Positions 2,991 to 33,944 of a stretch of DNA of 64,000 bases are shown here, one piece after another. Both the position numbers and the translations under genes were made by a program. A model generated the notes under the pieces. The model was not told the DNA's origin and did no database searches. It saw only the letters and a list, made by a program, of their open reading frames with translations. Position 1 is the first letter of the stretch, and the number at the start of each line of letters is the position of its first letter. The stretch comes from a virus, in the IMG/VR virus record IMGVR_UViG_3300046616_000314, positions 286,616 to 350,615 of that record. The stretch is one strand, 5' to 3'.

Positions 2991-3260
2991 ATGACCGAAA
3001 AACTTCAGGAGTATTATACGCCTGCTGCCATGCAAATTCTTCTGAAATATCCCGTGCCACATTGGCTGGTTCTGCGCGCGTTAGTCAACGAGCATCTTTC
3101 TCGCACGGATGCTTCGATGGTGGGAACCCCTGACATCGATATTAGTTCATTGATAATCTGCGTTCGACGCGGTATTAAACTAAGCGAATTCCTCAAATAC
3201 CTCGAAAAGGTATTTGGTGAATATTTTAGTGCTTATGAGGATGATCGCGCTGTTCTTTAA
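2991..3260 (+). CDS. hypothetical protein
   Basis: 89 aa ORF. Confidence 0.3.
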   Translation: MTEKLQEYYTPAAMQILLKYPVPHWLVLRALVNEHLSRTDASMVGTPDIDISSLIICVRRGIKLSEFLKYLEKVFGEYFSAYEDDRAVL

Positions 3261-14252: not shown

Positions 14253-15441
14253 ATTGTTTGAAGCACGTTCTAACCCAACGCAGAACAAAGACAACCGAGC
14301 TTCGGATGTTTCTGAATATTTGCGCGGTCTAGACTACGAAACTGGCGAACTGTTTATGAGTTTTACTCAAATCGATAAAGTTGGCATGAACCCGCAATCG
14401 ACTTACAACACGCCACTAGGTGTGTATTGCTATCCGATCAATCGCCACACTATCGAAGATTACGACAACAACAGTCTTCCATTTGCGGGCGATGCCAAGT
14501 TCGTGAACATTATCAAGTCACGCGGTAGTCAACTGAATGTTCAGGACTATGGCGATGATGATCTAGCCGACGACTCCAAGCGGTTGACCAGATATCTACT
14601 TAAGATTTTTCCCGAAAATGAAAATGAGATTGATCAAATTCATGCGCTAGCCGTACAGGATGCCAAGAATGGTACTCATGGCAAGAAAACGGCGGCTTCT
14701 TATATCTGGAATTACACTCGCTGGGCAGCTTACTTGCTGGACATCAAAGACCCGAAGGCAATCATTCGTAAGATGTCGGGATTTGATTCTACCACACCAA
14801 GCAAGACAGCCGCGACTTGGAATGCCGTCCTGCGTAAGGTGCTAGGATATGATTCGGTAGTCGATAACGGCTGGGGCATCATTCACGAAAACGAACCGAC
14901 ACAGGCGGTGTTCTTGGATGTTCGTGGTTTCCAGTTAGTATCGCGCCGCGTGAACACCAATTGGTCAGGTCGCCTCCTGAAGAAAATTAATCTGAGTACA
15001 GTTCCGTGGTTGTGGAAGAATAACAATATCGCTTTCCGTTCCATCCTCGCGGCTTTGGAAATTTTTATTACTAAGGCGCCCGTAGTGCTCAATCGCAAAT
15101 ATGAAGTGAACCGAGACAAACTTCGACAGGAAGTTCCAGGGTATTTTGCGGCATTGCGATCAGTGATAAGATACACGCATGTCACTATGCAGGAAGCTAG
15201 TTATATCGCTCATGGTATCATGAGTCATATCCGCAATGGTGGTATCTTGGAACATCTGAACCAAGACGAACGATTGGAACTGTTGGAGTGGTGGCTACCA
15301 TTTTTCCAAAAAGGCTTTTCTACCCAAACCGATTTGGCTAGCAATGAAACGTTCAAGAGAGATTACATGAACGTATTTGTTCACGTCCTAGACGACGCAC
15401 ATTATGCTAAATTTGAGGAATTTGTGGCTAATTATGGATAA
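14239..15441 (+). CDS. hypothetical protein, paralog B of the tandem pair
   Basis: 400 aa with SFTQIDKVGMNPQSTYNTPLGVYCYP / LPFAGDAKFVNIIKSRGS / WNYTRW / WNAVLRKVLGYDSVVDNGWGIIHENEPTQAVFL. Confidence 0.6.
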   Translation: MLITELFEARSNPTQNKDNRASDVSEYLRGLDYETGELFMSFTQIDKVGMNPQSTYNTPLGVYCYPINRHTIEDYDNNSLPFAGDAKFVNIIKSRGSQLNVQDYGDDDLADDSKRLTRYLLKIFPENENEIDQIHALAVQDAKNGTHGKKTAASYIWNYTRWAAYLLDIKDPKAIIRKMSGFDSTTPSKTAATWNAVLRKVLGYDSVVDNGWGIIHENEPTQAVFLDVRGFQLVSRRVNTNWSGRLLKKINLSTVPWLWKNNNIAFRSILAALEIFITKAPVVLNRKYEVNRDKLRQEVPGYFAALRSVIRYTHVTMQEASYIAHGIMSHIRNGGILEHLNQDERLELLEWWLPFFQKGFSTQTDLASNETFKRDYMNVFVHVLDDAHYAKFEEFVANYG

Positions 15442-16705
15442 TACATTTGCAGTAATGTCGGCTGATGAATTTAGAGAATTTATCAACCGCACGCGCGAGA
15501 TCAATTCAGACCTAGCACCGGGGCATGACAATTTCCACACGGATCGAATCAAGTACGTCTATCCTTTGGATAAGAATGAGCATTTGGTTGTGCTCAACGG
15601 TGATCACATTATTGCTATGGCAGGCGTTGAAACCAATCCGTATGACCATGAACAGCTTTGGATTAAGTATGTAAGCGTTGACCCAGAATATCGCGGTCAA
15701 GGTCTAGGGCGTTTCCTTCTAGAAAAGGTTTTCCAATACGCGGTCGCCCATGGTCAGAAGGTCAAGAATAGCAGCTTCACCGAACTAGGCGCCGAACGTC
15801 TCAAGCATCTGCACCCGGAATTCGAGAAGAAATATCCACAAGCTGCATTCGCCCGAAACGAACAGGGTAAGTACGTAAACTCTCGCGGTCAGGTCATGGA
15901 AGAATGCAACTTCACGCTTGAGCGCGAAGCGGCGAGCCATCTACCTACGGAATGGCTGAACGAAGCATCGACCGAAACCCCGGATGCCCCAACGGTCGAT
16001 ACGACCAAGGATGGTCAGACGATCACCTTTGAGCGTTTCAAGGATATCGAAGGCAATAAGAATCGCGGCTGGCGCGTAGACAAAATCGAAGCCAAGATCG
16101 GTAACGAGTTAGTGGGCTACATTAAGATTTCGTATATTCCGAAGACTCGCTTCAGACAATATTACAAGAGTGTCTTCAATTTTGCTCATCAGATGCTAGG
16201 TCAGACTGTCTTTCCATTCGGAAAAGAAACTGCCTCACTAGAAAGCTTGAATAACAAAGAATTGTTTGACGCACTCTACCGTGTATACAGAGAAAAGAGT
16301 TACAGTTTAGCCGAGCAACTAGACCCTAAGATGCCACGCAAGCAAGTTATGCTTTTGCTTAAGAAGCAAGAGTTGGCGTGGATGAACGATGAAACTAACG
16401 AACCGTATGGTGAGAAATTCAAGAAGTTCTATCGCTACCACGTTGATAAGCCGATGGTCGATGCGATTCGCGTCGAAGATGGTAGCGGATCATTGGGTAC
16501 CGCCGGTAAGCCGTCACATTTGCGTAGAGGAATCGGGCGCAAGCTCTATGCCGCCGCGTCAGAATGGATGCAAGAACGCGGTCTACGACTACACGCATCG
16601 GGTTGCCAGACGAACGATGCCAAGGCGTGCTGGACAAAGTTTGATTCTGAAGGCGGCGTTAAGAGCGATGCCGATGGACGCCGTTATATCGATTTCATGA
16701 AATAA
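15434..16705 (+). CDS. double GNAT-like N-acetyltransferase domain protein
   Basis: N-terminal IKYVSVDPEYRGQGLGRFLLE (GNAT motif A, Q/RxxGxG/A). A second C-terminal copy: LRRGIGRKLYAAASEWMQERG. Start taken at ATG 15434 (8 nt overlap); the alternative is 15404. Confidence 0.5.
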   Translation: MDNTFAVMSADEFREFINRTREINSDLAPGHDNFHTDRIKYVYPLDKNEHLVVLNGDHIIAMAGVETNPYDHEQLWIKYVSVDPEYRGQGLGRFLLEKVFQYAVAHGQKVKNSSFTELGAERLKHLHPEFEKKYPQAAFARNEQGKYVNSRGQVMEECNFTLEREAASHLPTEWLNEASTETPDAPTVDTTKDGQTITFERFKDIEGNKNRGWRVDKIEAKIGNELVGYIKISYIPKTRFRQYYKSVFNFAHQMLGQTVFPFGKETASLESLNNKELFDALYRVYREKSYSLAEQLDPKMPRKQVMLLLKKQELAWMNDETNEPYGEKFKKFYRYHVDKPMVDAIRVEDGSGSLGTAGKPSHLRRGIGRKLYAAASEWMQERGLRLHASGCQTNDAKACWTKFDSEGGVKSDADGRRYIDFMK

Positions 16706-17533: not shown

Positions 17534-19327
17534 CTAGTTCCGCCAGCGGTTCACGATGGGATAGCGACGATCCCGACCAAAAATCTTGCTTCCGATCTTA
17601 ACACCGGGAGCCGCTTGGCGACGCTTGTATTCAGCGTTATCCACAAGTTTGCGGATTTTCTGAACAACATCCAATCGAACTTCAAGTTCGACAACGATGT
17701 CAGCGACCGACAGTTCTTCTTCGATCATCGCCTTGAGGATCGAATCGAGAACCGGATAGGGCGGCAGGCTGTCTTCGTCCTTTTGATCGGGACGCAGTTC
17801 AGCCGAAGGCGGCTTCACGATGATCTCTTCGGGAACCACTTGAGTTGCCCGACCCAAGAAGCCAAATTCCGTCAGATATTTTTGCGGAATGGCATTGCGC
17901 CAGCGGCACAAGTCCCAAACCGTCGTCTTGTAGCAATCCTTGATCGGATTGAAGCCACCGCTCATGTCGCCGTAGAGGGTCGAGTAACCCACGCTGACTT
18001 CCGACTTGTTGCCGGTGGTCAGGAGGATATGACCCTCTTGGTTGGAGATCGCCATCAGGATAGTACCACGGGCACGCGCCTGGATATTTTCATCCGCAAC
18101 GCCTTCAAGCTCACGAAGACCAGCAGTCATACCCTTTTCGTACTGGGCACTGCTATAGGCAACGCGCAGCGAATTCACGACGTTCTCAATCGGGATGGTT
18201 CGCATTTGCGCACCAAGGCGATCAGCCCCGGCTTCTGCATCCGATAGCGAGTGATCCGAAGAGAATGCCGAAGGCAGGCGAACCAAGTGAACGTTCTCGG
18301 GACCGATGGCGTCACAGGCGACAGCCGCGACCAGACCGGAGTCCACCCCGCCGCTGTAGCCGAGAACCACTGACTTGAAGCCTTGCTTTAGAAGGTAGTC
18401 ACGGGTACCGAGCACGACAGCTTGATAGATTTCCTGTTCGTGTGGTGTAACGATCTTCGGATAAAGATGCAAGGGAGCCCGATTTTCCGGCGGCTTGATC
18501 CAGTGCGAGAACGAACCGTCATCGCGCACCGAGCCCACAATCGTAGTCGGAACGCCCGCGTCATTATATTCGAAATGGCGCGAACGGGTTTGCGGGTGGA
18601 ATTCGAAGGCGAACAAACCTTCTTTGAAATATGGCGCCGACTGATAGCCCTTGGCGTCGTAGTAGAACGATCCGCCGTCGAACACCAGTTCGTCTTGACC
18701 ACCGATCATGTTGACGTACAGGAACGGCAAGCCGGTTTCCTTGATGCGGTTGGCGATCACTTGGTGACGAGTGACATTCTTACCGGCTTCGAACGGTGAA
18801 CCGTTGATGCTCAGAAGGAACGTGGCGTCATTGTCCGACAGCGAACGGCTCACGCTGGGGAACCAGCAGTCTTCGCAGATCATCAGACCGATGCGTTGAC
18901 CCCGGAATTCGATGGGAAACGGTTCGGCGGTATTTGCTTCGAACACGCGCTTTTCATCGAACACACCGTAGTTCGGTAGTTCGGTCTTGTGGATCAGATC
19001 GACCTTCTTGAGAACCGGATCGATCAAGTACGCACTGTTGCGCGGTTTGACGTTGCCCTTCGTCGGCGTGCCGAAGATGATCCCGGCGTCCATGAAGCCG
19101 CCGCCCATGACAGCATCAATGATGCGTTGGTTGGCGCGTTCAACCGCGTCCATGAACGAATGGCGCGACACCAAGTCTTCGATGGGATAGCCGGTCACGG
19201 CGCACTCTGGGAAGACGACCAGATCAAAGCCCGATTTTGCGGCGTTCTCGTATTGGGCAATGATTTGATCCGCGTTGCCGACGATATCACCGACGACCGG
19301 GTTAAATTGAATGACAGCAATTCTCAT
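17534..19327 (-). CDS. nadE: glutamine-dependent NAD+ synthetase (nitrilase domain + NAD synthetase PP-loop domain)
   Basis: N-terminal CN-hydrolase signature (MRIAVIQFNPVVGD...LVVFPECAVTGYPIEDL...GLMICEDCWFP). C-terminal PP-loop (VVLGYSGGVDSGLVAAV). 597 aa is typical for Gln-dependent NadE; GAGGAA RBS. Confidence 0.85.
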   Translation of the reverse strand: MRIAVIQFNPVVGDIVGNADQIIAQYENAAKSGFDLVVFPECAVTGYPIEDLVSRHSFMDAVERANQRIIDAVMGGGFMDAGIIFGTPTKGNVKPRNSAYLIDPVLKKVDLIHKTELPNYGVFDEKRVFEANTAEPFPIEFRGQRIGLMICEDCWFPSVSRSLSDNDATFLLSINGSPFEAGKNVTRHQVIANRIKETGLPFLYVNMIGGQDELVFDGGSFYYDAKGYQSAPYFKEGLFAFEFHPQTRSRHFEYNDAGVPTTIVGSVRDDGSFSHWIKPPENRAPLHLYPKIVTPHEQEIYQAVVLGTRDYLLKQGFKSVVLGYSGGVDSGLVAAVACDAIGPENVHLVRLPSAFSSDHSLSDAEAGADRLGAQMRTIPIENVVNSLRVAYSSAQYEKGMTAGLRELEGVADENIQARARGTILMAISNQEGHILLTTGNKSEVSVGYSTLYGDMSGGFNPIKDCYKTTVWDLCRWRNAIPQKYLTEFGFLGRATQVVPEEIIVKPPSAELRPDQKDEDSLPPYPVLDSILKAMIEEELSVADIVVELEVRLDVVQKIRKLVDNAEYKRRQAAPGVKIGSKIFGRDRRYPIVNRWRN

Positions 19328-19329
19328 TT

Positions 19330-19671
19330 TTATTCCTCAATATCAACGGGAGTGATATGCCAAACCGAACGGCTCTGGGGTTTCACTCCGGTACGCATGG
19401 CGTCCATCACTTGACTGATATTACTGATTCCGCCAGTAATTTCAACAAAGCCAACGCCGACGATGTTTAGGGCAAGCGCATCCGCACCCGCCGTGATGTT
19501 TTGAACCTTGTCATTCTTAAGAATGATTTCAGTACAATCGACCAAGTTCTTGATGTTCTTGATCGCTTTCACGTGTCCAATTTTCAGAGCCACCTTGGCT
19601 GCATCATCTTCATTGTGGGCGAAGATGCTGCAACCAGAGTTGGCAGAATTGGTGATGCGGTAGATACGCAT
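19330..19671 (-). CDS. hypothetical protein within the NAD operon
   Basis: 113 aa ORF packed tightly between pncA and nadE. Confidence 0.45.
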   Translation of the reverse strand: MRIYRITNSANSGCSIFAHNEDDAAKVALKIGHVKAIKNIKNLVDCTEIILKNDKVQNITAGADALALNIVGVGFVEITGGISNISQVMDAMRTGVKPQSRSVWHITPVDIEE

Positions 19672-20316
19672 TTAGTCCTCGTGCGGATAGGCGTGAGCGA
19701 AGGTCAGGTTTTCGTTACCCGGAAACTCTTCCAAGATAACTTGCTGCATGTCGCGCACGATGCCCTTGGTCAGGTCAGCCATGACGATCACCTTGAAGCC
19801 ACGCTTCAGGAAACCTTCAATCGCCCAAAAGACGCAGAAGTCGGCAGCAAAACCGGTGATGATGATCGTATCGACGCCTTGCGCCTTCAGATCGGCGAAG
19901 AATTCATCGCGATCATAGTACGAGTTGGTCAGCGCGAGACGCAGATCGCGCAGATACAACTTGTCTTCTTCCCACATATTGAAGACGCCCTTTTCCAGGG
20001 CATAGACCGGGATGGCGAAATTGATCAACGCCGGATTGATGACGTTCTCCCAACCGGGTGTGCCCTTTTCACAGTGCAGATTGAAGCCTGGGGCGCCCAC
20101 TTCCGGGTTGCCGAGATTTTCCGGCGAGCCGATGAAGGTTTCTTCGGTGTGCGTATCGAAGGTGTTCAGAACACCCGCGATTTCGTCAGGGTTCAAGCTG
20201 GCGTTCCAACGCAGCAGCTTGGAAACCACGGCTTCAGCACCTTCCACCGGCAGGGCAAAGCCCTTGAAGATGAAATCGGCTTGGGTATCAACGTTGACCA
20301 CAAATTTGTTTTTCAT
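19672..20316 (-). CDS. pncA: nicotinamidase / isochorismatase-family cysteine hydrolase (PncA-like)
   Basis: VNVDTQADF (the VDxQNDF motif), ...IITGFAADFCVFWAIEGFLKRGFKVIV (catalytic Cys in the GxxxxxCV context), ~214 aa. Confidence 0.65.
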   Translation of the reverse strand: MKNKFVVNVDTQADFIFKGFALPVEGAEAVVSKLLRWNASLNPDEIAGVLNTFDTHTEETFIGSPENLGNPEVGAPGFNLHCEKGTPGWENVINPALINFAIPVYALEKGVFNMWEEDKLYLRDLRLALTNSYYDRDEFFADLKAQGVDTIIITGFAADFCVFWAIEGFLKRGFKVIVMADLTKGIVRDMQQVILEEFPGNENLTFAHAYPHED

Positions 20317-20328
20317 AATATTTTTTCC

Positions 20329-21663
20329 TTAAACCAGAACCGGAGCACCATCGAGACCTTCGATCCCGAACAGTGCGCGGTAGCGGTCCACTTCAGAGGC
20401 GGGACCAGTTGCCTTGTTATAGTTGTCCGACATCTTCACGGCAGGACGCCCATCGGCATCCTTGATCTTGGCAACAACCGAGATCGAACCCATGTAGTCG
20501 TCAGCTTCGCCAGGGACGCAGCCATAGAAATCGTTCGACAGGTTGGTACCCCAACCAAAGCCCATGCGGACCTTGCCACGGAAGTAGGCTTCGATTTCCA
20601 AGATGTCTTCACCGTGGGTGTCGTAGCCATCGATCTTGACATCAAGACCGTCGCTGAAAATAATCAGCTTTTCTTGCGGGTTCTCGCCGTGCGTCTTCCA
20701 ATATTTGATCAGTTCGTCACCGCCAGGAATCGGCTTCTTGGAGTCGGGGCGAGCACCCGTCCACTGAGAAACCCATTGCGGGGCATTCTCAAGGAACTGG
20801 GTCGTGCCGAACGTGTCGGGCAGGAAGACCAGCAGTCCGCCGCGATATTGCGCCGCCCACTTCAGGAGCACCTTGTATTGTGCATCCTTCAGTTCGGCAT
20901 CGTCTTGCGCCAGAGCCGCCAGGGTCATCGGTAGTTCATGGGCGTTCGTGCCCTTGGCTTCCAAACCATGCTTCATGGCGAGATATGCGTTCGACGTACC
21001 GGTGAAGCGGTCGCCAAGAACTTCCTTCGCCAGCAGCATGGCGTATTCTTGCCAAAGGAAGCTATGGCGACGGCGAGTGGCGAAGTCCGTCAGGTTCAGG
21101 TCTTCGACAGTCGCCAGCTTTTCGAGCTTGGCGTACAGCTTCGCCTTGGCGCGGGCATACATGATGTCGATTTGGGTAGCCGTCAGCTTTGACATCCGCG
21201 AACGAGCAAGAAGCTCATTGATGATGGTCAGTGCGTAGATTTCCCAAAGCGTCACTTCGGTCCAAGTGCCGTGGAATTCGAGGATGTATTGACCGGTTTC
21301 TTCGTCAACTTCCAATGAATATTCCGGCAGTTGGAACGTCTTCAGATATTCGATATAGCCCGGCTTGAACAGTCGGTCTTGACCGTAGAAGGTGTTTCCC
21401 TTGAGCCAGTGAATCTCGTTCGGCTGGAAACGCAGCGTGCGAGCATGGTCGAGTTGCGCGCGGAGTTGCTTGATATTGATGTTCCGCGCGAGCTTCACTC
21501 GCTTGGTACGATTGGTGACGGCGAACGTCACCTTCGTATTGAAGAAATCTTCACGGATAAGCTGTTGCATCAGCAGCTTATAAAAATCGATGTCCAGCAG
21601 CGACCGAACGATGGGGTCGATGTCGTAAAGAAGGGCGTCTTTGGCGCGTTTTGCAAAATCCAT
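20329..21663 (-). CDS. pncB: nicotinate phosphoribosyltransferase
   Basis: Aligns by eye to E. coli PncB: DIDFYKLLMQQ/DTDAYKLHMQQ, LWEIYALTIINE/LWEVPLLAVISE, FATRRRHS/FGTRRRFS, GTSN, GTNAHE/GTQAHE, KMSDNYNKATG/KLSDSPGKTIC. Confidence 0.8.
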   Translation of the reverse strand: MDFAKRAKDALLYDIDPIVRSLLDIDFYKLLMQQLIREDFFNTKVTFAVTNRTKRVKLARNINIKQLRAQLDHARTLRFQPNEIHWLKGNTFYGQDRLFKPGYIEYLKTFQLPEYSLEVDEETGQYILEFHGTWTEVTLWEIYALTIINELLARSRMSKLTATQIDIMYARAKAKLYAKLEKLATVEDLNLTDFATRRRHSFLWQEYAMLLAKEVLGDRFTGTSNAYLAMKHGLEAKGTNAHELPMTLAALAQDDAELKDAQYKVLLKWAAQYRGGLLVFLPDTFGTTQFLENAPQWVSQWTGARPDSKKPIPGGDELIKYWKTHGENPQEKLIIFSDGLDVKIDGYDTHGEDILEIEAYFRGKVRMGFGWGTNLSNDFYGCVPGEADDYMGSISVVAKIKDADGRPAVKMSDNYNKATGPASEVDRYRALFGIEGLDGAPVLV

Positions 21664-21668
21664 AATAA

Positions 21669-22760
21669 TTAAACTTTCTTAATCAGAGCTTCGGAGTCGC
21701 TGATCATCTTCCAATGATCTTCGAAATATTCGTAACGCGGAATGGTATCCGGGTCCTTCCAAACGGCGCGCTTGGCGTCCGACGCCGCGCGAACCTTCGG
21801 ATACGCCAGGGCTTCGCGAACCTTGGTGATATCGGTCACGCCCGGCGGAATCTTCGGAGTCAGATTGATGAAGGTGGTGTGGCTGACGGTGCGCTTGCGA
21901 GTCGAGCGATTGGGATCATCGTAGGTTTTTTCGCCGATGATGCTGTTGCGTAGAGTTTCGCGAGCGACCTTCAGACGGGTCTCTTCGTACAGTTCCTTGA
22001 TCGCAGCGTCCGCAGCCGTTTGATTTTCGCAGTGACCACCGGGGACCGCCCACAGACCCTTACCGGGGAAGCCGCCGCGCTGGACCAAAAGAACCTTGCG
22101 CGCTTGGCGAACGACCGAATCCGCCGTGTAGAAAATCGGCGGATAGGGAGCACTGTCCCATTGCCCCAGATAGTTTTGCATGAACACCTTCTCGGCAAGA
22201 AGGCTTTCAAGATATTCGGGGGTTTGACGGAATTCTTGAAGGAAGGCGATCACGCCTGGGGCGAGATATTCAGTCGCTTCGCCGTTCAGGAATTCCGAGA
22301 CGAGGCGTTGATCTTCGACAATATATTTGTCGCGCGCATAGGTCGCGTTGATCCCACGGAAGTTGGGGACTTCGACGCTTTCCCAATCGGGGAACTGCGA
22401 CAGATAATAGCCGGTGGGTTGATCTTTCTTGTGACCGACAAGGGCGGTGGGATCATCTTGAACGATATCCCGCGTGGCATCATGCACGGCGGCTTGCCAT
22501 TGCGAAATGTTGCCATAGTCCATGACGTTGACGAACTTGACCCGACGCAGTTGTTCGGGAGGCAGCATACGCCGCCACATTTCTTCACGTTCAAATTCTC
22601 GGAAGGGAACATGGTCCCATCGCCGTGCGGCGAAAGAAGAACCGTTGACGACAACTAGTTCTTCGCATTCTTGTAGCCCGGCTGCAACTACGGCGCCGTG
22701 AGCTAGTGTTACTGGTTGACCGCGAACAACGGTCACACCGTGACGATAACGATACTTCAA
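21669..22760 (-). CDS. nadM: bifunctional NMN/NaMN adenylyltransferase - Nudix hydrolase (NadM-Nudix type)
   Basis: N-terminal nucleotidyltransferase region (VVRGQPVTLAHGAVV, GQP..xHxGH-like). C-terminal Nudix box GGHCENQTAADAAIKELYEETRL (Gx5Ex7[RK]ELxEEx). The architecture matches NadM-Nudix and phage NatV. Confidence 0.65.
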   Translation of the reverse strand: MKYRYRHGVTVVRGQPVTLAHGAVVAAGLQECEELVVVNGSSFAARRWDHVPFREFEREEMWRRMLPPEQLRRVKFVNVMDYGNISQWQAAVHDATRDIVQDDPTALVGHKKDQPTGYYLSQFPDWESVEVPNFRGINATYARDKYIVEDQRLVSEFLNGEATEYLAPGVIAFLQEFRQTPEYLESLLAEKVFMQNYLGQWDSAPYPPIFYTADSVVRQARKVLLVQRGGFPGKGLWAVPGGHCENQTAADAAIKELYEETRLKVARETLRNSIIGEKTYDDPNRSTRKRTVSHTTFINLTPKIPPGVTDITKVREALAYPKVRAASDAKRAVWKDPDTIPRYEYFEDHWKMISDSEALIKKV

Positions 22761-22813
22761 GGTAAATCCTACCGAGCTATGGTAGCGCGTGGACTATTCC
22801 TGCGCCATGTTTT

Positions 22814-22821
22814 TATTTATA
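22814..22821 (-). promoter_or_regulatory. T4 late-promoter-like TATAAATA box upstream of the NAD operon
   Basis: Plus strand reads tatttata, so the minus strand reads TATAAATA, 54 nt upstream of the nadM start. Confidence 0.3.
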
Positions 22822-22862
22822 CCAAACTTTTTTCGTAAACGCAATTAAAAAATGCGGGCAAG

Positions 22863-22895
22863 AAAAAGCCCGGCGATTGCTCGCCGGGCTCTTGT
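22863..22895 (-). terminator. rho-independent terminator downstream of the mucR-like gene
   Basis: GCCCGGCGAttgctCGCCGGGC hairpin with a T-tract on the minus strand. Confidence 0.55.
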
Positions 22896-22920
22896 AGTCT
22901 CTATAGCTGGCGCCGAGAGA

Positions 22921-23475
22921 TTAGGCTTCGGTCGAAGCCAGATCAGCAGCGGCGTTCTTGGCTTCCGATTCCACGACGGTTTCCTTGGCGGGCTTGCGAG
23001 CCTTGGTCGCCTTCGGAGCCTTCGCAGCCGGGGCAGCAGCCTTCGCCTTGCGACCGCCTTGACCCAGACCCAGAGCCTTCGCCATCGCCGAACGGGCTTC
23101 CGAGTAGGCGGGCGCCGTGGTCGGGTAGTCGTTCGGGAGACCGAACTTCGCCTTGTATTCGGCGACGGTCATGCCGTTGGTGGTCAGGTGACGCTTCAGG
23201 GTCTTGTAGGGCTTGCCGTCGATGAAGCTGATCAGCGCGTCGTTGGTCACGGACTTGCGGATTTGAGCCGGGGTCGCCTTGGCTTGCTCGTCAGCGACGA
23301 CAGCGACCGGCGAAGCGGCGTTGGTCAGACCGGTCAGAGCCGCCGAAATGGCGCCGATGACGCCGGGGATGTCGGTCGCCGACACGGCGTTGTGCGAGAA
23401 ATAGGCACCAGCAACAGCGGCGGTCAGTTCGACGGTCGAAGTCGCGGACGACACGGGTTGAGTTTGATCAGTCAT
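22921..23475 (-). CDS. mucR: Ros/MucR-family transcriptional regulator homolog, zinc-finger-less variant with Lys/Ala-rich C-terminal tail
   Basis: VELTAAVAGAYFSHNAVSATDIPGVIGAISAALTGL and IRKSVTNDALISFIDGKPYKTLKRHLTTNGMTVAEYKAKFGLPNDYPTTAPAYSEARSAMAKALGLGQ align to Agrobacterium Ros ([104 protein letters not shown]). The Cys2His2 ligands are replaced by I/S and T/N. The tail reads KAKAAAPAAKAPKATKARKPAKE. Confidence 0.8.
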   Translation of the reverse strand: MTDQTQPVSSATSTVELTAAVAGAYFSHNAVSATDIPGVIGAISAALTGLTNAASPVAVVADEQAKATPAQIRKSVTNDALISFIDGKPYKTLKRHLTTNGMTVAEYKAKFGLPNDYPTTAPAYSEARSAMAKALGLGQGGRKAKAAAPAAKAPKATKARKPAKETVVESEAKNAAADLASTEA

Positions 23476-23798
23476 ATTCGCTCTCTGTCTGTTTCACAAA
23501 AGGATGCCGCAACCATCAGCGGCGTTGGAGAGCCTTGAAATTAGTTCGCTGCTTTCAAGGTGTCAACAGCACTCATAGAGATTTTTTGATTTTATGCTGT
23601 TTTGGCAAGCCTAGACACTGATTTTAGACCAACGGATACATGAGCTAGATGCAAAAGGTTTAATGAAAAAATCAATAAAATCATATAGTTATGGTGGAGG
23701 TTCCGTAGAGGCTCACCGCTTTGGGGGCTTCTGAAACTTTTTTTGCTTTTTTGCTTGGAACCAAAGCTTTTCGAAAGATATTGCGCGTAAAAGGGACC

Positions 23799-24299
23799 AT
23801 GAGTTATGATTATCAGATGACAACGAAACTTGATCTCGGCTTCAAACACGGTGGATTGGCTCGCCAGCTATCCAATCTCTACGCTTACCCTTTCGTGCTC
23901 GATGGCACGCAATGCGGCTCTATTGAGGGCTTTCTTCAGGGTGTGAAATTCCAGGGCTTGGAAGAACAAGCCTTGATTGCGTCTTTGCAGGGCTACGAAG
24001 CTTATAAGACCGGGCAACTAGGGAACGACTGGAAAGAAACTCAAACCCTGTGGTGGCAGGGTAAGGCTTTTCCTCGCCTTAGTAGAGAGTACCATACTCT
24101 CTTAGAGCGGGCGTACGATGCGTGCTTCGATCAGAACCCGGCTTTCGTACAAGCATTGATCGACAGCGGCATTGATGTCCTGACACATTATATGGGGCAT
24201 CACGATCCGCATAATTCGGTGCTCACCGAATGGGAATACATCTATCTTATGTATCGAGCGCGTACGAAGGCGTTCCAAGGGATCATGGCAGAAACTTGA
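23799..24299 (+). CDS. NADAR (YbiA-like, DUF1768) domain protein, predicted ADP-ribose/NAD-derivative N-glycosidase
   Basis: GGLARQLSNLYAYPFVLDGTQCGSIEGFLQGVKF ... GNDWKETQ ... NPAFVQALIDSGIDVL matches the NADAR core (LSNFYP.PF..DG..Y.SVEHYFQA.KF ... DWE ... NP.L...LL.TG). AAGGGA RBS 4 nt upstream. Confidence 0.65.
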   Translation: MSYDYQMTTKLDLGFKHGGLARQLSNLYAYPFVLDGTQCGSIEGFLQGVKFQGLEEQALIASLQGYEAYKTGQLGNDWKETQTLWWQGKAFPRLSREYHTLLERAYDACFDQNPAFVQALIDSGIDVLTHYMGHHDPHNSVLTEWEYIYLMYRARTKAFQGIMAET

Positions 24300-24325
24300 C
24301 AGTGCCTTAACGAAAGTTTATAGAC
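24297..24325 (+). promoter_or_regulatory. sigma70-like promoter candidate
   Basis: TTGACA at 24297-24302, a 17 nt spacer, then TATAGA at 24320-24325, upstream of the 24350 ORF. Confidence 0.3.
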
Positions 24326-24349
24326 AGGATTCCGGTCGAGGGAATTTCT

Positions 24350-24592
24350 ATGTCATCTGACGAATTTGGTATTTTGTTTCTCGCTGCGGTGTGTCTTGGA
24401 CCATTTGTGTTAGTTTGTTTTTTTGCCCTGAACGAAAACCGCAACAAGGGCAAGTGGGAAACCGTCAAGGATGACGGGCGTTATTCCTATCAACAACACA
24501 AGGTGACGGGTAAGCGGCGCCTTTGGGTGTCTAAAGTTGGTCTCCTTCCTGTAAATCAGGATTGGGTAGACGGCAAAACTGATATTCTTTAG
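24350..24592 (+). CDS. small membrane protein
   Basis: 80 aa with an N-terminal hydrophobic helix (ILFLAAVCLGPFVLVCFFAL). Confidence 0.4.
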   Translation: MSSDEFGILFLAAVCLGPFVLVCFFALNENRNKGKWETVKDDGRYSYQQHKVTGKRRLWVSKVGLLPVNQDWVDGKTDIL

Positions 24593-24594
24593 GA

Positions 24595-24900
24595 ATGAAA
24601 ATGACCGCTTCCGTCCGTCAGCCCGTCGTGTGGGTGAAATCCCCGGTGAAACAAGAAGAAGAAAACGCCCGATTGGCGCGTGAAAAATCTGCAATGATCG
24701 TCAAAGTGCAGGTTCCCTTCATTGAAGACGGCGAAGTGTCGGTGTATCGTGAAGGTCGAAAGGGTTTGAAGCACCAAGCCCTGACCGTCGAAGAACAAGC
24801 CATGCTGGGCGATGACCGCAAGGCGCATTTTAAGGCGTTATGGAACGTCGATGCCGTTCGATGGGATTTGCTGAAGCGGGTTAAGGACCAAGCGTGGTAA
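24595..24900 (+). CDS. hypothetical protein
   Basis: 101 aa ORF. Confidence 0.4.
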   Translation: MKMTASVRQPVVWVKSPVKQEEENARLAREKSAMIVKVQVPFIEDGEVSVYREGRKGLKHQALTVEEQAMLGDDRKAHFKALWNVDAVRWDLLKRVKDQAW

Positions 24901-25211
24901 CTTCCATTAAGTGGTATGCGCGGGTAAAAGAGACCTCTGGTGGAATTTTGAAAACGATTGACTGGGTTGAAGAAAATTGCCCCGGTTGGTCGTTTTTCGA
25001 TATTAAAAGCAAAGATGGTCCGCTACCTGAAATCAAAAGTATTTTGAGCTTGAGTGCGATAGATGCACCCGAGCGCAATATGGAATATGAAATCTATTTT
25101 GTTCAAGAAGAACATTTTGCGATATTTAAGCTATATAAGTCTGAAAGGATAATTGCATCTTCGACTGTTTGGGTAAGTAATATTCCCAATCTTTCGTGGG
25201 GACCAGAATAA
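24894..25211 (+). CDS. small protein, weak member of the F[KR]LK family
   Basis: Contains ...VQEEHFAIFKLYKSE. Confidence 0.35.
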   Translation: MVTSIKWYARVKETSGGILKTIDWVEENCPGWSFFDIKSKDGPLPEIKSILSLSAIDAPERNMEYEIYFVQEEHFAIFKLYKSERIIASSTVWVSNIPNLSWGPE

Positions 25212-25220
25212 CCAATTATC

Positions 25221-25481
25221 ATGATTAAGATTGAGCTAGATGTTAAGAATTCCGACATGCGTTCATTGCATGTGTGGCTCGACGCCAATTGCATTGGTTG
25301 GTGCTATCAAGGTGCAGGAAACCGTTTGTCCAACGAGCTTTGGGCAAAGAAAATGAACAAAAACATCGGCGCCCGCCAGAACGATATGAAAATTATTTTT
25401 TATGTAAAAGTTATCGAGGACGTTGCGACGATTCGTTTAAAATACGGCGGCGTCCGCGTAATTTCCGTCGATATCAATTGA
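25221..25481 (+). CDS. small protein of the F[KR]LK[YW]GG family
   Basis: Ends ...IEDVATIRLKYGGVRVISVDIN. Confidence 0.4.
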   Translation: MIKIELDVKNSDMRSLHVWLDANCIGWCYQGAGNRLSNELWAKKMNKNIGARQNDMKIIFYVKVIEDVATIRLKYGGVRVISVDIN

Positions 25482-25494
25482 TTAACGAATTTAA

Positions 25495-25854
25495 ATGGTG
25501 CATAGACGCCATGAGGGGGAACCCATGATCGAATTACCGAAAAACAAAAACAATTTTTGGGTTGAAGCACGTGTGCTGATCGCAGCTACCTTGCATCTGA
25601 TCCTTTGGAACATCTGGCATTTGAAATTTGCCATTTTTCTCGCACTCGTCACCTTTGGGTTTGCGGATGGAATGGCAAAGCAACTGATTGCCCCCTGGCA
25701 ACTGTTGGTCTTGATTTCGTTTGTCGTGTTGATCGCCTACAGCGATGGCTCTACAGCCAGAGACAGTTACGAACACCACATGCGCAAGCGTGAGAATAGC
25801 AACGCAGCTAAGTTCCAGCGTAAGATGGACAAGCTCAAAGCAAAAAAGAAATAG
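25495..25854 (+). CDS. small membrane protein
   Basis: Three hydrophobic segments and a basic C-terminus. Confidence 0.4.
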   Translation: MVHRRHEGEPMIELPKNKNNFWVEARVLIAATLHLILWNIWHLKFAIFLALVTFGFADGMAKQLIAPWQLLVLISFVVLIAYSDGSTARDSYEHHMRKRENSNAAKFQRKMDKLKAKKK

Positions 25855-25856
25855 AT

Positions 25857-26375
25857 ATGAACATCATCTATAAGCACGGCGACCTAATGGCTTCGCCGGA
25901 AACATTCATCGTTCAGGGCTGTAACGCCCAAGGTGTAATGGGTTCGGGTGTCGCGAAGCTATTGCGTGACGCAGATGAAACCATTTACTCCGAATATCGA
26001 CAAGTTTACGAGGACCAAGGCAATTTCCTGAAGCAAGGGCAATGCGTTTGGGTTTTCTCGAAAGTGTTGAACAAGTTCGTTATCAACGCGATCACACAAC
26101 GATTTTATGGTCGCGAACCCGGCGTGGTCTACGCGGATTACGATGCCATTGAACAAGCGTTCCGTGACATCAATGATCATTTCTATAAGCATCGCAACGA
26201 GAATGCGACTATCCCTCAAGTGGCAATGCCTTTGATCGGAGCCGGGCTTGCTCAAGGTAAGTGGTCGATCATCGCTCAAACCATCGAAGAAAGCGCGGAG
26301 CATTTTCAGCCCGTCGTCTATCTGATGGACGGGATCATTCCCGATGGTGTTCAAGGGGAAGTCATCAATGCGTAA
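25857..26375 (+). CDS. macro domain protein (ADP-ribose binding / ADP-ribosyl hydrolase, Appr-1''-pase family)
   Basis: IVQGCNAQGVMGSGVAKLL (the N-A-x-N...GGGV-like motif) and QVAMPLIGAGLAQGKW (the PxIGxGxxG motif); 172 aa is typical for a single macro domain. Confidence 0.7.
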   Translation: MNIIYKHGDLMASPETFIVQGCNAQGVMGSGVAKLLRDADETIYSEYRQVYEDQGNFLKQGQCVWVFSKVLNKFVINAITQRFYGREPGVVYADYDAIEQAFRDINDHFYKHRNENATIPQVAMPLIGAGLAQGKWSIIAQTIEESAEHFQPVVYLMDGIIPDGVQGEVINA

Positions 26376-28808: not shown

Positions 28809-28883
28809 GCGGGTGTAGTTCAGTGGTAGAACATCAGTTTTCCAAACTGAGTGTCGCTGGTTCGATCCCAGTCACCCGCTCCA
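28809..28883 (+). tRNA. tRNA-Gly (anticodon UCC)
   Basis: Cloverleaf folded by hand: acceptor stem GCGGGTG/CACCCGC, D-arm GTTCAGTGGTAGAAC, anticodon stem TCAGT/ACTGA with loop TTTCCAA (anticodon TCC), T-arm GCTGG-TTCGATC-CCAGT, discriminator U, encoded CCA. Confidence 0.8.
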
Positions 28884-29242: not shown

Positions 29243-31285
29243 TTATGTCACAACCAACGTAAACGTGCGGAAATTTGACGTATAATTGTCGTTTGCCGCC
29301 AATTCGAACGTATAAGTTCCGGCTGATACTGTTCCCGATAGTAGACCGGTTGCTGACAGCGTTGTTCCAGAAGGCAACGTTCCCGAAGCCAACATATATT
29401 TTACGCCTTGACCTTCTGGGTCAGTCGCAGAGAATTGCAAGCTGTATGCGCCTGCGGAAGCCCCTGGCAACGATGCTGCGGTATTCCAGTTAGGAGCACG
29501 GTTTGTGATTTGAACAGTAAAATTATGTGGAGTGATCAAAAACCCATCCGTTGCGGCGATAGTAAAACCATAAAAGGTAGTAGCTACATCAACAAATGGT
29601 ACGGTTCCAGTAATCACACCCGTATTTCCATTGAGTGTCCAATTATTGAAACCCAAATCTACGGAGCGATAGGTAATAGTCAAACCATCATCTGATCCTG
29701 TATTACACGTAATAGTGATAGGATCACCGCAATTGGCTTGAATAACCGCGCTATTGTTGTACCAAATAGGTCCAGCAGCGCGCTTAGTACCCAAGAAATC
29801 CGATAGGCGAATTTCTCCCGACGTTGGAATTCTTGACGTGTATGGACGATCTACCACATAGAAATTGCCCAAACCAAAAACCTTATGTGTATACGGATTC
29901 GTGCAGGTTCGGATGCCAAGATCATCGACGTGTTCAGTCGGGCTCAATGTCCAAACGGTACCCGAACGATTATAAACACTATTATTTCGATTGTCATAAA
30001 TCTTGGTGAAACCGACACCGGGTAATGTTCCACCGGCTGCTTTGGTTACTCCAATATTGGTTGTCTGGTTGATTTGATCCCCGGTGTAGTAAGTAGAATT
30101 TCCAGTTACGGGATCAACATATGCAAAAATATTATCGTATGTATACCATTTTGCATATACGGCGCCGGGGAGGGCTGCAACAATTTGGGCATACGTTTTC
30201 GACCCAGTAAGCGTTTGCCAACCATCCGCCGCTGTCAATGCTTGGTGGATAAATTCGATTCCACCAATTTGTTTATAATTTACATCAAAACAATATAGAC
30301 CCATAATGTGATGACATGGATTGCCATTTGTTGTGGTAGGATCGGTTACTTGGCGGCGATCCATAGACATATTGTATGTCGCGCCGCTTTCTAATTTAAA
30401 ATATGCCAATTCACCGTAGGATCGTGCCTGGATAATGCTACCCCAGTATTGCCCTTGTGTTTGGATGACTGGTCCCTTGGTCGGGTCAGTAACATACGTA
30501 ACCTGCCCGCCGCCGGGTAGGTTTCCACGCGGGACCATCGTTCCATAGTCAGATGATAGATACAATTGACTCGTATGAACAGAGGGGTGATTACCAGCCT
30601 CCGACAGGTACATGGAATCGAATTCCCATTGTGTGTCCACAACGTTGTTCGTAATCTCAGACAGCACGGTCTTGCGATAGTAATCAGTTAGCTTGGTTGG
30701 GGTAGGTCCAACGAATTCTGTTCGAATGTCGCCCAAGCTGATTTTCGGAAGCACTTCGAATTTGAGGATTTCGTAGATGGCATCCGAAAAGGGAATACCA
30801 TCAGGGGCTCCCGACCGATTTAGGCGAATACGCGGACGTGCCGCCGGATAATTTTGCGGACAAACCCACAAGCAAAGAATTTCGTACCATTCATTGACAA
30901 CCCACGATGATGTATCAATGAAATCATCGGGCGCGATCAAGCCAGGACCACTAGTCGGACCTTTAATAATAATGTTAGTTGAGTAATCAGTGGGCGCATC
31001 GGGATAGACAATAAAACCGGGTCTCAACCACGATGTAATACCAGATGACGCCGCAATCTTCCGCATGGTGGCGCGCATAAGATAAGACCGCCCGGCTTGT
31101 GGAACAAATGCATCAATGCCAGTGAGTGATGGACCCTCACCGGTTTTAGAACGGAATACTTGCTGACCATCACCATTAGTTACCAAATACGACGGATCAA
31201 TTGGAGTCGGAGACGCCGAATTTTCATTGAATGTCCAATCGTTTACGGACGTGAAGAGGGATGGGTAGTAGGGAGGTAGAGCCAT
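29243..31285 (-). CDS. tail fiber / host-recognition protein with C-terminal Ig-like (cadherin-like putative-Ig) repeats
   Basis: 680 aa, rich in G/T/N/S. C-terminal LPSGTTLSATGLLSGTVSAGTYTFELAANDNYTS (the ...LP.G.sld..tG.isGtp...g.y.f.v.a.d motif of the dystroglycan/cadherin-like Ig domain). Confidence 0.5.
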   Translation of the reverse strand: MALPPYYPSLFTSVNDWTFNENSASPTPIDPSYLVTNGDGQQVFRSKTGEGPSLTGIDAFVPQAGRSYLMRATMRKIAASSGITSWLRPGFIVYPDAPTDYSTNIIIKGPTSGPGLIAPDDFIDTSSWVVNEWYEILCLWVCPQNYPAARPRIRLNRSGAPDGIPFSDAIYEILKFEVLPKISLGDIRTEFVGPTPTKLTDYYRKTVLSEITNNVVDTQWEFDSMYLSEAGNHPSVHTSQLYLSSDYGTMVPRGNLPGGGQVTYVTDPTKGPVIQTQGQYWGSIIQARSYGELAYFKLESGATYNMSMDRRQVTDPTTTNGNPCHHIMGLYCFDVNYKQIGGIEFIHQALTAADGWQTLTGSKTYAQIVAALPGAVYAKWYTYDNIFAYVDPVTGNSTYYTGDQINQTTNIGVTKAAGGTLPGVGFTKIYDNRNNSVYNRSGTVWTLSPTEHVDDLGIRTCTNPYTHKVFGLGNFYVVDRPYTSRIPTSGEIRLSDFLGTKRAAGPIWYNNSAVIQANCGDPITITCNTGSDDGLTITYRSVDLGFNNWTLNGNTGVITGTVPFVDVATTFYGFTIAATDGFLITPHNFTVQITNRAPNWNTAASLPGASAGAYSLQFSATDPEGQGVKYMLASGTLPSGTTLSATGLLSGTVSAGTYTFELAANDNYTSNFRTFTLVVT

Positions 31286-32572: not shown

Positions 32573-32938
32573 GTGTATACTTCCGAAATTACTATGCGGA
32601 GATTTGTTATGCCCGAATTTCGAGCCAGCGATATCAGGACCACGAATTATTCTCACGCTTTCCAAGCGTCGATGTTCGCTGACAAAACCGAATGGACGAA
32701 AGCCAAGAGTGGCAAGGATTTCGCTCGAAAGTTTTTCGAAAAGAATCCCGATCTTTTGGAAGACCCTCGGACGTGGCAAGCCGGTCTCGGCGTCCAATTC
32801 GAAGAAGGTAAGTGGTCCTATTACCACCCTGGCGAATTCGGCTATATGATGCCCGACACGATTCGGGCTACGTTCTCGCCAGAAGTTTTGGCGGCGATGC
32901 AAAAGCTTCAGGACTTCGGTCAACCGCATGGTCTCTAA
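32573..32938 (+). CDS. hypothetical protein
   Basis: 121 aa ORF. Confidence 0.45.
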   Translation: MYTSEITMRRFVMPEFRASDIRTTNYSHAFQASMFADKTEWTKAKSGKDFARKFFEKNPDLLEDPRTWQAGLGVQFEEGKWSYYHPGEFGYMMPDTIRATFSPEVLAAMQKLQDFGQPHGL

Positions 32939-33944
32939 ACTCCTAACGCGCGAGCAATTCAGCGAGCAAGTGATTGGTCGTGCGAAGGGGAAGTGCGTCT
33001 TTTGTGGTGATCCGGCTACCGAAGCTCATCACATTATGGATCGCAAATTATTTAAGGATGGCGGATACTATCTCGATAACGGCGCGGCTGTCTGTAATAC
33101 CTGCCATATGAAATGCGAAGACAACACATTCACAGTTGAAGAAGTCAGAAAAGCGGCGGGTATTACTGAAGTAATTCTTCCACTTGACTTTGACCCCGAC
33201 TTACTATACGATAAGTGGGGTAATATCACACTTAGTGACGGAACAAGGGTCAAGGGACCGTTGTTTGAGGACACTGCGGTCCAAAAACTTTTGAAGAGGG
33301 AGCTTCGCATGTATGAACATCTTGTAAAGTATTCCTCGACTCCGCATCTGCCTCAGTCGCGGACGCGCACGGAAGACGACAAGGTTCTCAAGACCATCGA
33401 ACATCTGTTGAAGTTCAATGGTGTTGCGACTGAAAAAATGGATGGCGAGAATGCCTCGCTGTACAACCATCACTATCACGCACGGTCGCTTGATAGTCGT
33501 CACCACGTGTCGCGTGATTGGATCAAGTCGTTCTGGGCAACCATCAAGGAAGACATTCCGGTGGGTTGGCGCGTGTGCGGCGAAAATCTGTTCGCAGAGC
33601 ATTCCATTGGTTACAACGACCTTCCGAGCTATTTCCTCGGATTTTCGGTGTGGACCGACAAGAACGAATGTTTGGGCTGGGATGATAGCCTGGAATGGTT
33701 CGACCTTCTGGGCGTCACTCCGGTCCCGGTGCTGTATCGCGGTCCTATCTCTGAACAAGTCATCATGGACTTGATCAAGGGTATCGACATCACGGTTCAA
33801 GAGGGTTTCGTCCTTCGTAACGAAGGTTCGTTCCACTACGACGATTTTGCTTCTAATGTTGCCAAGTGGGTGCGTCCTAAGCACGTGCAAACGGACCAAC
33901 ATTGGATGGCGAAGGATGTCGTGCCCAACGGGCTTAGGAAGTAA
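32928..33944 (+). CDS. HNH nuclease - RNA ligase (Rnl2-like nucleotidyltransferase) fusion protein
   Basis: N-terminal HNH (CVFCGDPATEAHHIMDRKLFKDGGYYLDNGAAVCNTCH). C-terminal ligase motifs I EKMDGEN (KxDG), III/IV WRVCGENLFAEH and EGFVLRNE, V AKWVRPKH. Confidence 0.6.
   Translation: MVSKLLTREQFSEQVIGRAKGKCVFCGDPATEAHHIMDRKLFKDGGYYLDNGAAVCNTCHMKCEDNTFTVEEVRKAAGITEVILPLDFDPDLLYDKWGNITLSDGTRVKGPLFEDTAVQKLLKRELRMYEHLVKYSSTPHLPQSRTRTEDDKVLKTIEHLLKFNGVATEKMDGENASLYNHHYHARSLDSRHHVSRDWIKSFWATIKEDIPVGWRVCGENLFAEHSIGYNDLPSYFLGFSVWTDKNECLGWDDSLEWFDLLGVTPVPVLYRGPISEQVIMDLIKGIDITVQEGFVLRNEGSFHYDDFASNVAKWVRPKHVQTDQHWMAKDVVPNGLRK

Follow-up and report, generated by a model that had tools for sequence, protein, structure and literature searches.

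A jumbo phage carries a complete, selectively maintained MucR-family gene

Introduction

Why would a phage encode a full-length relative of MucR, the alphaproteobacterial analog of the silencers H-NS, Lsr2 and MvaT, of which mobile elements are known to carry copies (well established for H-NS and Lsr2) or inhibitors? The question is raised by a mucR-like gene in a 64,000-nucleotide stretch of viral DNA (positions 286,616 to 350,615 of IMG/VR record IMGVR_UViG_3300046616_000314; hereafter the window, meaning the whole stretch analyzed), where it occupies positions 22921-23475 on the minus strand. MucR has recently been recognized as the alphaproteobacterial counterpart of H-NS (PMC9410896, PMC10746212). 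It prefers AT-rich DNA with T-A steps and silences by bridging that DNA, for which its N-terminal domain has to self-associate (PMC9410896, PMC6250670), and Caulobacter MucR1/2 likewise favor AT-rich sites (PMC4083442). Among the papers found, one describes an anti-silencing mechanism for MucR, through cyclic-di-GMP, and states that such mechanisms were otherwise unknown (PMC12560781). A review has taken phage MucR genes to indicate transfer by phages (PMC7710501), and we found no functional study of any phage MucR in the literature searched.

Results

Identity of the gene

The mucR-like gene, carried by a jumbo phage, is a complete member of the MucR family that selection has maintained. Its coding sequence runs from an ATG start to a TAA stop at 22921-22923, encodes 184 residues and was defined from the open reading frame (ORF) list together with matches to PF05443 and Ros87. 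The Pfam profile PF05443 (ROS_MUCR) matched at 126.3 bits (E = 9.2e-37; curated cut-off 25.4 bits) over profile positions 2-123 of 123, corresponding to residues 14-138, and the sole PDB match found with phmmer was Ros87 of Agrobacterium (2jsp, E = 9e-19, residues 68-143); searches of NCBIfam and PHROGs (v4) returned no family for the protein. An earlier sequence-only reading had assigned both halves of the protein to Ros/MucR and looked to significance against PF05443 as the check, and a match over the full profile, far beyond chance, bears out the ORF as well as the assignment.

The best 120 matches from a collection of 5.8 billion proteins were 59-71% identical to the window protein, and all those named to organism were Caulobacter except one record labeled Ricinus communis. 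We aligned 104 of these sequences and used the alignment to build an AlphaFold2 (AF2) model. From its N-terminus, the protein consists of a self-association domain of two helices, then a linker, the DNA-binding domain with the Ros87 fold and a tail that is basic and disordered, and its sequence identifies it as a full-length Ros/MucR nucleoid-associated protein of the Caulobacter Ser-Asp-His type, predicted to lack the zinc site. An orthologue (P0111) was found in a second phage, on a 1.6-kb Joint Genome Institute (JGI) contig (L001) with the same divergent PF08010-like neighbor (68% amino acid identity); it is an intact ORF that has the FIDG and TTNG motifs of the window protein, an even longer tail and the same ending.

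DNA-binding domain and absent zinc site

The Ros87-type DNA-binding domain (residues 68-141; 23053-23274, minus strand) was delimited by alignment to 2jsp, the AF2 model and Foldseek. It was 88-93% identical to Caulobacter MucRs, conjugative-element copies included, and its mean identity to bacterial homologues (88%) equaled that between bacterial pairs. Between the two phage orthologues, nonsynonymous divergence (dN) in this domain was 0.07 and synonymous divergence (dS) 0.45, and the resulting dN/dS of 0.16 points to strong purifying selection. The predicted local distance difference test (pLDDT) score was about 90 over residues 68-140, and the best PDB match of the model was again 2jsp (Foldseek probability 1.00, template modeling score 0.56 for the target).

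The four-ligand zinc finger (Cys2His2 in Ros, Cys-Asp-His2 in MucR and Ml1-3), formed at the positions of Ros Cys79, Cys82, His92 and His97, is not present in the window protein. Alignment to 2jsp placed Ser83 at Ros Cys79, Asp86 at Cys82, His96 at His92, and Asn100 plus a gap at His96/His97, so that the claim that the zinc ligands are replaced holds for three of the four Ros ligands and fails for the fourth, Ros His92 being kept as His96. Asp86 is a residue type used as a ligand by some zinc-binding Ros/MucR members. His96 was invariant across every homologue aligned, as were Ser83, Asp86 and Gly101 in 104 of the 104 close homologues, and position 100 was more variable (His in 77, Gln in 18, Asn in 4, Met in 3 and Lys in 2). 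The window protein also has the signature of the Caulobacter-type clade, Ser-x2-Asp...His-x3-(H/Q/N)-Gly with DYPTTAP, GLGQGGRK and a basic A/K/P tail. Since all 104 homologues share Ser-Asp-His, the absence of the zinc site characterizes the Caulobacter clade as a whole. Among the best 79 IMG/VR loci (L013-L091), in which we took a census of viral MucR ligands, the first three ligand positions were Ser-Asp-His in 54 and Cys-Asp-His in 20. The idea that ligand loss is specific to the phage copy was therefore not upheld, and zinc loss as a phage adaptation is rejected. The domain, with its incomplete ligand set, was modeled with high confidence, and the Mesorhizobium loti proteins Ml4 and Ml5 fold and bind DNA zinc-free (PMC5693944, PMC9779718).

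N-terminal domain

The N-terminal oligomerization domain (residues 9-52; 23320-23451, minus strand) is predicted to form two helices (residues 9-28 and 33-52; pLDDT 81-94). Oligomerization of MucR is driven by Brucella L36/L39/I40 (PMC6250670) and Sinorhizobium fredii Y24 (PMC9410896), and we mapped the Brucella numbering by presumed correspondence through the motif D/E-L-P-x-L-I. Tyr25, Ile36, Val39 and Ile40 occupy these self-association columns, where the consensus in the 104-sequence census is Y/F, L, L and I; the window protein thus has the two-helix domain with both a hydrophobic triad and an aromatic residue. Its replacements are conservative yet rare, Val39 occurring in 2 of 104 sequences and Ile36 in 7.

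The domain as a whole is diverging fast, and by sequence comparison it is the least conserved part of the phage protein. Over residues 14-50, identity to bacterial homologues was 39% (maximum 54%) compared with 61% among bacterial proteins. At matched identity of the DNA-binding domain, N-terminal identity was 0.36-0.41 between the window protein and bacteria and 0.58-0.64 between bacterial pairs, such that the window values lay at or below the 5th percentile of the bacterial pairs. The two phage orthologues shared only 30% amino acid identity here (dN 0.74, dS 1.02, dN/dS about 0.7), compared with an N-terminal dN of 0.05 for a pair of bacterial orthologues of the closest, conjugative-element type. 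The nearest N-terminal domain in the local set was about 54% identical, and a query with this domain alone against the 5.8-billion-protein set, looking for signs that it had been swapped in from a different lineage, returned no match, which is uninformative since the query protein itself was also not recovered. The window protein further has a 6-residue N-terminal extension relative to Caulobacter MucRs. P0111 carries Thr at position 40, by numbering apparently the same kind of replacement as Thr39 of S. meliloti MucR3, a protein that oligomerizes poorly and does not bridge DNA (PMC13297338).

Tail and acidic end peptide

The DNA-binding domain is followed by a basic Lys/Ala/Pro-rich tail, predicted to be disordered from its composition and pLDDT (residues 142-165; 22981-23052, minus strand). 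Residues 141-165 contain 9 K/R (36%), 10 A (40%) and 3 P (12%), with a net charge of +8 and an isoelectric point (pI) of 11.3, and pLDDT was below 50 over residues 145-183. The motifs quoted in the sequence-only reading, ALISFIDGKPYKTLKRHLTTNGMT and KAKAAAPAAKAPKATKARKPAKE (residues 143-165), are present; the Lys/Ala/Pro stretch that it gave as the end of the protein (residues 143-165) is followed by 19 more residues. As to the likening of this tail to histone H1, K/A/P composition and disorder fit residues 141-165; the segment is only 25 residues long and of low complexity, we make no claim of H1 homology, and it is best described as the ordinary tail of the clade lengthened. Past GLGQ, the window protein has 45 residues compared with a median of 18 in bacterial homologues (2.5 times longer), while the median net charge of bacterial tails is +7. 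Other MucR representatives have long A/P/K/E tails, some with AT-hook-like RGRKPK repeats. A K/A/P tail being normal for the clade, the basic tail as a phage adaptation is also rejected.

The real novelty of the phage copy, given that neither zinc loss nor the basic tail is specific to it, is the acidic peptide TVVESEAKNAAADLASTEA at its C-terminus (residues 166-184; 22924-22980, minus strand; net charge -3, pI 4.05). This ending (..EAKNAAADLA..) is conserved in P0111 of contig L001 (TVTAEAKQAAADLAAAEPAA) and in the MucR of a third phage represented by contigs L081 and L082 (TVERESTQAAADLAAPVSAE). Near the C-terminus, AA(A/S)DLA was seen in these proteins only, and none of about 370 further MucR homologues that were examined has the acidic end peptide. 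Scanning IMG/VR by alignment of the tail alone confirmed no further carriers, and a degenerate DNA pattern run against viral and metagenome contigs recovered L081 and L082 as the sole MucR carriers, its remaining matches being unrelated proteins. The peptide is thus confined to three related phage lineages, in which it sits on two different MucR cores, which indicates recombination, whether by core replacement or by tail transfer. Autoinhibitory fold-back on the basic tail and docking of a partner are possible roles.

Relatives and origin

The third phage is represented by two near-identical records, IMGVR_UViG_3300046003_007336 (L081; 198.5 kb) and IMGVR_UViG_3300042892_005063 (L082; 107 kb), with MucR at 3001-3636. 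This MucR has 211 residues, a Cys-Asp-His/Tyr core and a long K/A/P tail ending in ..TVERESTQAAADLAAPVSAE, and its closest relatives (67-72% identity) come from Caulobacteraceae, Phenylobacterium and Brevundimonas genomes and have short tails (median 10.5 residues). This phage has a DNA polymerase with 51.7% identity to the Sinorhizobium phage Phosso enzyme, which places it in the same clade as the window phage. The ORF just downstream of the L081 MucR has a 33%-identical homologue at window positions 93-464.

Synonymous divergence in the DNA-binding domain was 0.8-1.1 between phage and bacterial genes and 0.45 between the two phage orthologues, indicating that the two phage genes share ancestry and that capture was not recent. 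By protein distance ranking, the two phage proteins were not mutual nearest neighbors; at synonymous sites they were closer to each other than to the bacterial genes. The nearest DNA-binding domains, those of P0005, P0009 and P0012 (92-93% identity), fall in a MucR2-like subclade whose hallmarks are Ile/Leu85 and Phe111, and the window protein has the signature of this MucR2-like, conjugative-element subclade (Ile85 and Phe111). Genes of the P0005/P0009 type (L008-L012, for example Caulobacter CP033875.1, 1527577-1536026) adjoin AlpA, two TraD, a MobA/MobL relaxase, an HTH_3 regulator and a response regulator, a neighborhood that looks like an integrative conjugative element. A mobile-element-associated MucR2-like subclade exists in Caulobacter, and the position of mucR beside conjugation genes indicates that MucR copies already travel on mobile elements in this lineage. 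The sequence relationships suggest that the core was captured from a Caulobacter gene of this MucR2-like, conjugative-element type before the two sampled phage lineages split, and that the tail module is common to the third related phage with its different core.

Viral and prophage contigs commonly carry genes of the MucR family, and at least 156 stretches were confirmed by tblastn in IMG/VR. An early scan of IMG/VR for close relatives also returned two GC-rich contigs with bacterial-type MucR, which were uninformative; in one of these, MucR lies at the contig edge, probably a prophage or host boundary.

Phage identity and probable host

The window is DNA of a jumbo phage of the Atu_ph07/Phosso clade. 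It encodes a portal protein (phrog_213, E = 1e-101) and a tail-associated lysin domain and holds genes of nicotinamide adenine dinucleotide (NAD) metabolism; the portal protein shares 50.8% identity with its counterpart in Phosso (469 kb) and 50.5% with the one in Agrobacterium phage Atu_ph07 (490 kb). Neither a megablast search of positions 20000-26000 against GenBank phages nor a tblastn search with the 866-residue tail protein gave a match, indicating that the phage is not a sequenced isolate. An identical MucR protein (P0001) is encoded on a 561,116-bp JGI contig and also on a 40-kb Logan contig, with the same neighbors. Provided that the 561,116-bp contig represents a single genome, this phage exceeds its closest cultured relatives, Phosso and Atu_ph07, in size.

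The closest named relatives of the window protein are from Caulobacter, with 65-71% overall identity. On this basis the host, which the sequence-only reading had placed among MucR-containing Alphaproteobacteria, can be narrowed further and probably belongs to the Caulobacterales (Caulobacter-like bacteria).

Locus and neighboring genes

The mucR gene is a compositional outlier (z = 3.8, top 0.14% of 555-bp windows), with a GC content of 63.8% and a GC content at third codon positions (GC3) of 75.7%, compared with 48.9% GC for the window and GC3 of about 0.50 in structural genes. High GC3 was also seen in the orthologue: mucR GC3 was 0.76 in the window (22921-23475) and 0.89 in L001 (624-1235), and that of the adjacent orthologous gene was 0.52 and 0.65, respectively. 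Synonymous divergence was saturated in the adjacent gene and only 0.45 in the DNA-binding domain of mucR. The persistently high GC3 could be due to a slow rate of amelioration, to recurrent conversion from copies in the host or to selection favoring GC-rich coding sequence.

An intrinsic terminator (22853-22893, minus strand), in which a U-run comes after a G+C-rich stem of 13 bp (22864-22893), lies 28 nt past the stop codon. Its RNA fold has a predicted energy of -35.8 kcal/mol (z = -4.8), equaled in stability by none of 200 shuffles, and a consensus scan also returned an overlapping terminator-like site; an Rfam scan of 22600-24000 gave only matches below the gathering score, on the terminator hairpin. 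Upstream, mucR and the PF08010-like gene share an AT-rich (about 39-44% GC) divergent region of 323 bp (23476-23798; minus strand for mucR). A consensus scan of this region found putative promoter hexamers on the minus strand, TTGCCA-16-AAAAAT at 23608-23581 and a perfect TTGACA at 23566-23561. Having its own terminator and a divergent upstream region, mucR is a monocistronic cassette. Comparison of the sequences upstream of mucR in the window and in L001 showed no conserved operator or promoter block. The mucR 5' leader contains a terminator-like hairpin with a T-run (GCCGCTGATGGTTGCGGC ATCCTTTTGT; 23523-23506, minus strand) about 30 nt before the start codon, which could be an attenuator or merely a structured leader.

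A complete set of NAD salvage and synthesis genes (17534-22760) lies directly downstream of mucR on the same strand, beyond the terminator, comprising NMNAT-Nudix (21669-22760), NAPRTase (20329-21663), an isochorismatase/PncA-like gene (19672-20316) and glutamine-dependent NadE (17534-19327), all on the minus strand. GC3 in this set was 0.60-0.70, compared with about 0.50 in structural genes. The set looks like a phage NAD+-replenishing module, of a kind proposed to counter NAD-depleting defenses. The window also has a single tRNA-Gly(TCC) gene (28809-28883, plus strand). Precomputed Pfam matches in the corresponding Logan contig identified further accessory genes, namely a weak match to a Macro-domain protein (25857-26375, plus strand), an RNA ligase (32928-33944, plus strand), a 680-residue He_PIG-domain protein (29243-31285, minus strand) and a GNAT acetyltransferase-domain protein (15404-16705, plus strand).

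Discussion

We tentatively favor, with a probability of roughly 0.45, the reading that the phage protein is a counter-silencer acting by competition, or a chromatin protein specific to the phage, and not a poison subunit. Because its DNA-binding domain is nearly that of Caulobacter MucRs, it would be expected to recognize the same AT-rich, T-A-step DNA, and to do so zinc-free, as Ml4 and Ml5 do. Within a host cell of roughly 64-67% GC, a phage genome of roughly 49% GC would be the largest new AT-rich target, which host MucR would coat and silence; the GC contrast observed is that between the window (48.9%) and Caulobacter mucR loci (64%). The phage protein would then compete for the sites of host MucR on phage DNA, and competition for DNA sites is the best-supported part of what the sequence-only reading had proposed. 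It would assemble with itself and not with host MucR, since its N-terminal domain has diverged, its tail is lengthened and acidic-capped, and its DNA-binding domain, which a mere poison would not need, is conserved. The product would be a coat that is non-silencing or differently regulated.

Several points weigh against this reading. Atu_ph07 and Phosso, the closest cultured relatives, are without a mucR gene, which makes the gene accessory rather than essential to the clade. The oligomerization positions Tyr25, Ile36, Val39 and Ile40 are conservatively kept, which is compatible with mixed oligomers with the host protein, and the net positive charge of the tail is no higher than that of bacterial tails. 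A genuine silencer would need the complete MucR architecture equally, such that counter-silencing and silencing both fit. The DNA binding, oligomeric state and silencing effect of the window protein are all properties that we infer, and the same is true of the host assignment.

The protein could instead silence or repress in its own right, which we consider somewhat unlikely. It might top up the MucR pool as a stealth factor against titration by about 0.5 Mb of AT-rich DNA, as in the precedent of plasmid R27 Sfh; it might hyper-repress the host MucR regulon (G1-phase and surface genes) for takeover or superinfection exclusion; or it might be a temporal repressor of phage genes, including its own. 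Every bridging module is present (N-terminal domain, DNA-binding domain and basic tail), the location of the closest bacterial homologues on conjugative elements fits silencer copies on mobile elements, and the many MucR genes in IMG/VR viral contigs agree with such a role. MucR proteins also autoregulate (PMC7710501), and the gene has an extended AT-rich upstream region. Stealth, however, chiefly helps elements that persist, and no lysogeny genes were seen in the examined parts of the window, while the diverged N-terminal domain and the acidic end argue against simple duplication of host MucR activity. The earlier suggestion that the protein poisons host MucR, by co-oligomerizing with MucR1/2 through its N-terminal domain and disrupting silencing filaments or bridges on the phage genome, is not supported as stated, and we regard it as unlikely. 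In its favor, Caulobacter MucR1 and MucR2 interact as heteromers, truncated MucR1, consisting of the N-terminal part only, is trans-dominant over MucR2 (PMC4083442), and the two-helix fold and self-association residues are retained. A domain that docks on a conserved host partner ought to be conserved too, but the N-terminal domain is the fastest-evolving part of the protein (39% compared with 61% identity, and 30% between the phage orthologues with dN/dS of about 0.7), and purifying selection on the DNA-binding domain would be needless for a pure poison. Thr40 of P0111, which by numbering resembles Thr39 of the poorly oligomerizing MucR3, points the same way.

A disordered basic tail that ends in a conserved peptide, one confined to related jumbo phages, would also suit a phage histone that is packaged in the virion or condenses DNA, its tail coating DNA in the head or replication compartment, and that is perhaps injected, with the C-terminal peptide as a targeting or processing signal; giant T4-like phages do package internal proteins. 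We judge this improbable, as the basic charge does not exceed that of bacterial MucR tails, the gene is surrounded by metabolic and accessory genes, at a distance from the structural module, and the protein has no recognizable targeting motif. We give almost no credence to the gene being a functionless passenger recently gained from the host, or an assembly artefact, as its strongly deviating composition and its absence from Atu_ph07 and Phosso might suggest. The same gene and context occur in two independent assemblies, so it is not an assembly chimera; a recent passenger is rejected on the intact orthologue with the same neighbor in a diverged phage, the dN/dS of the DNA-binding domain, the phage-to-bacterium dS of 0.8-1.1 and the gene's own terminator.

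A wider proposal, which we put forward as speculative and rather unlikely to hold, extends the counter-silencer reading to the clade. Caulobacterales jumbo phages might keep a lineage-specific MucR chassis, consisting of a long disordered K/A/P spacer and an acidic ..E(A/S)(K/T)(N/Q)AAADLA.. ending, possibly with an N-terminal extension, into which host paralogue cores (Ser-Asp-His in the window and L001, Cys-Asp-His in L081 and L082) are swapped by recombination to give a modular counter-silencer. If so, the phage would retain a near-perfect mimic of whatever silencer its host employs. Rapid evolution of the N-terminal domain would keep this mimic out of host oligomers, and through the terminal peptide a phage-specific activity (autoinhibition, recruitment of a partner or anti-bridging) would reach DNA bound by MucR.

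The window protein belongs to the same family as Caulobacter MucR1/MucR2 and the conjugative-element copies, with which it shares the zinc-less Ser-x2-Asp...His-x3-(His/Gln/Asn)-Gly pattern and a basic A/K/P tail. It is 63-66% identical overall to the MucRs of C. vibrioides and C. segnis, and its DNA-binding domain is 92-93% identical to those of the conjugative-element copies P0005 and P0009. Unlike these, it has a diverged N-terminal domain, the 6-residue extension, the 45-residue tail and the acidic end peptide, and it is encoded by a lytic-type jumbo phage of 49% GC. With Agrobacterium Ros, Brucella MucR and Sinorhizobium MucR1 it has in common the two-domain architecture, the Ros87 fold, the hydrophobic and aromatic oligomerization positions and a basic C-terminal region, whereas their Cys2His2 or Cys-Asp-His2 sphere is replaced by Ser83, Asp86, His96 and Asn100 and the tail is extended. 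M. loti Ml4 and Ml5, likened here from their description, are also family members without the ligand set, but the window protein falls in the Caulobacter clade and not among the Mesorhizobium paralogues. S. meliloti MucR2 and MucR3 are similarly accessory paralogues on a non-chromosomal replicon; they have altered oligomerization residues and lack the fourth ligand, and they bind DNA without bridging it (PMC13297338). By analogy, they offer a working precedent for a MucR that may compete without silencing, although they still bind zinc via Cys-Asp-His, unlike the window protein, and their function is bacterial.

Among annotated phage MucRs, those of Erythrobacter phages vB_EliS_R6L (gp61) and ZS04 and of Mesorhizobium phage Cp1R7A-A1 are likewise phage-borne PF05443 proteins, and R6L gp61 shares Ser-Asp-His with the window protein. 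They differ in being only 37-42% identical, in coming from phages of 65-131 kb and in having short tails that lack the acidic end peptide. Plasmid R27 Sfh, phage-encoded H-NS, prophage Lsr2-like proteins, T7 gp5.5 and LUZ24 Mip are parallels in concept only, being non-homologous to MucR. The window gene is an instance of a silencer copy on a mobile element, being a phage-borne homologue of Caulobacter MucR whose nearest relatives are on conjugative elements. As phage MucR genes have already been annotated, its novelty is modest, that of an interesting variant rather than a new principle. Its variant features, namely a host-identical DNA-binding domain, a fast-evolving N-terminal domain, a tail module specific to jumbo phages on interchangeable cores and persistently high GC3, were absent from the papers searched.

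For the family, these results indicate that the zinc-less zinc finger, far from being an oddity, prevails among the MucRs of this clade and of the closest viral loci examined. They also point to the Caulobacterales as the probable host group of an uncultured phage about 0.56 Mb in size. The phage version amounts to a natural experiment that separates DNA recognition, self-association and tail function. It offers a direct handle on whether MucR restricts phages.

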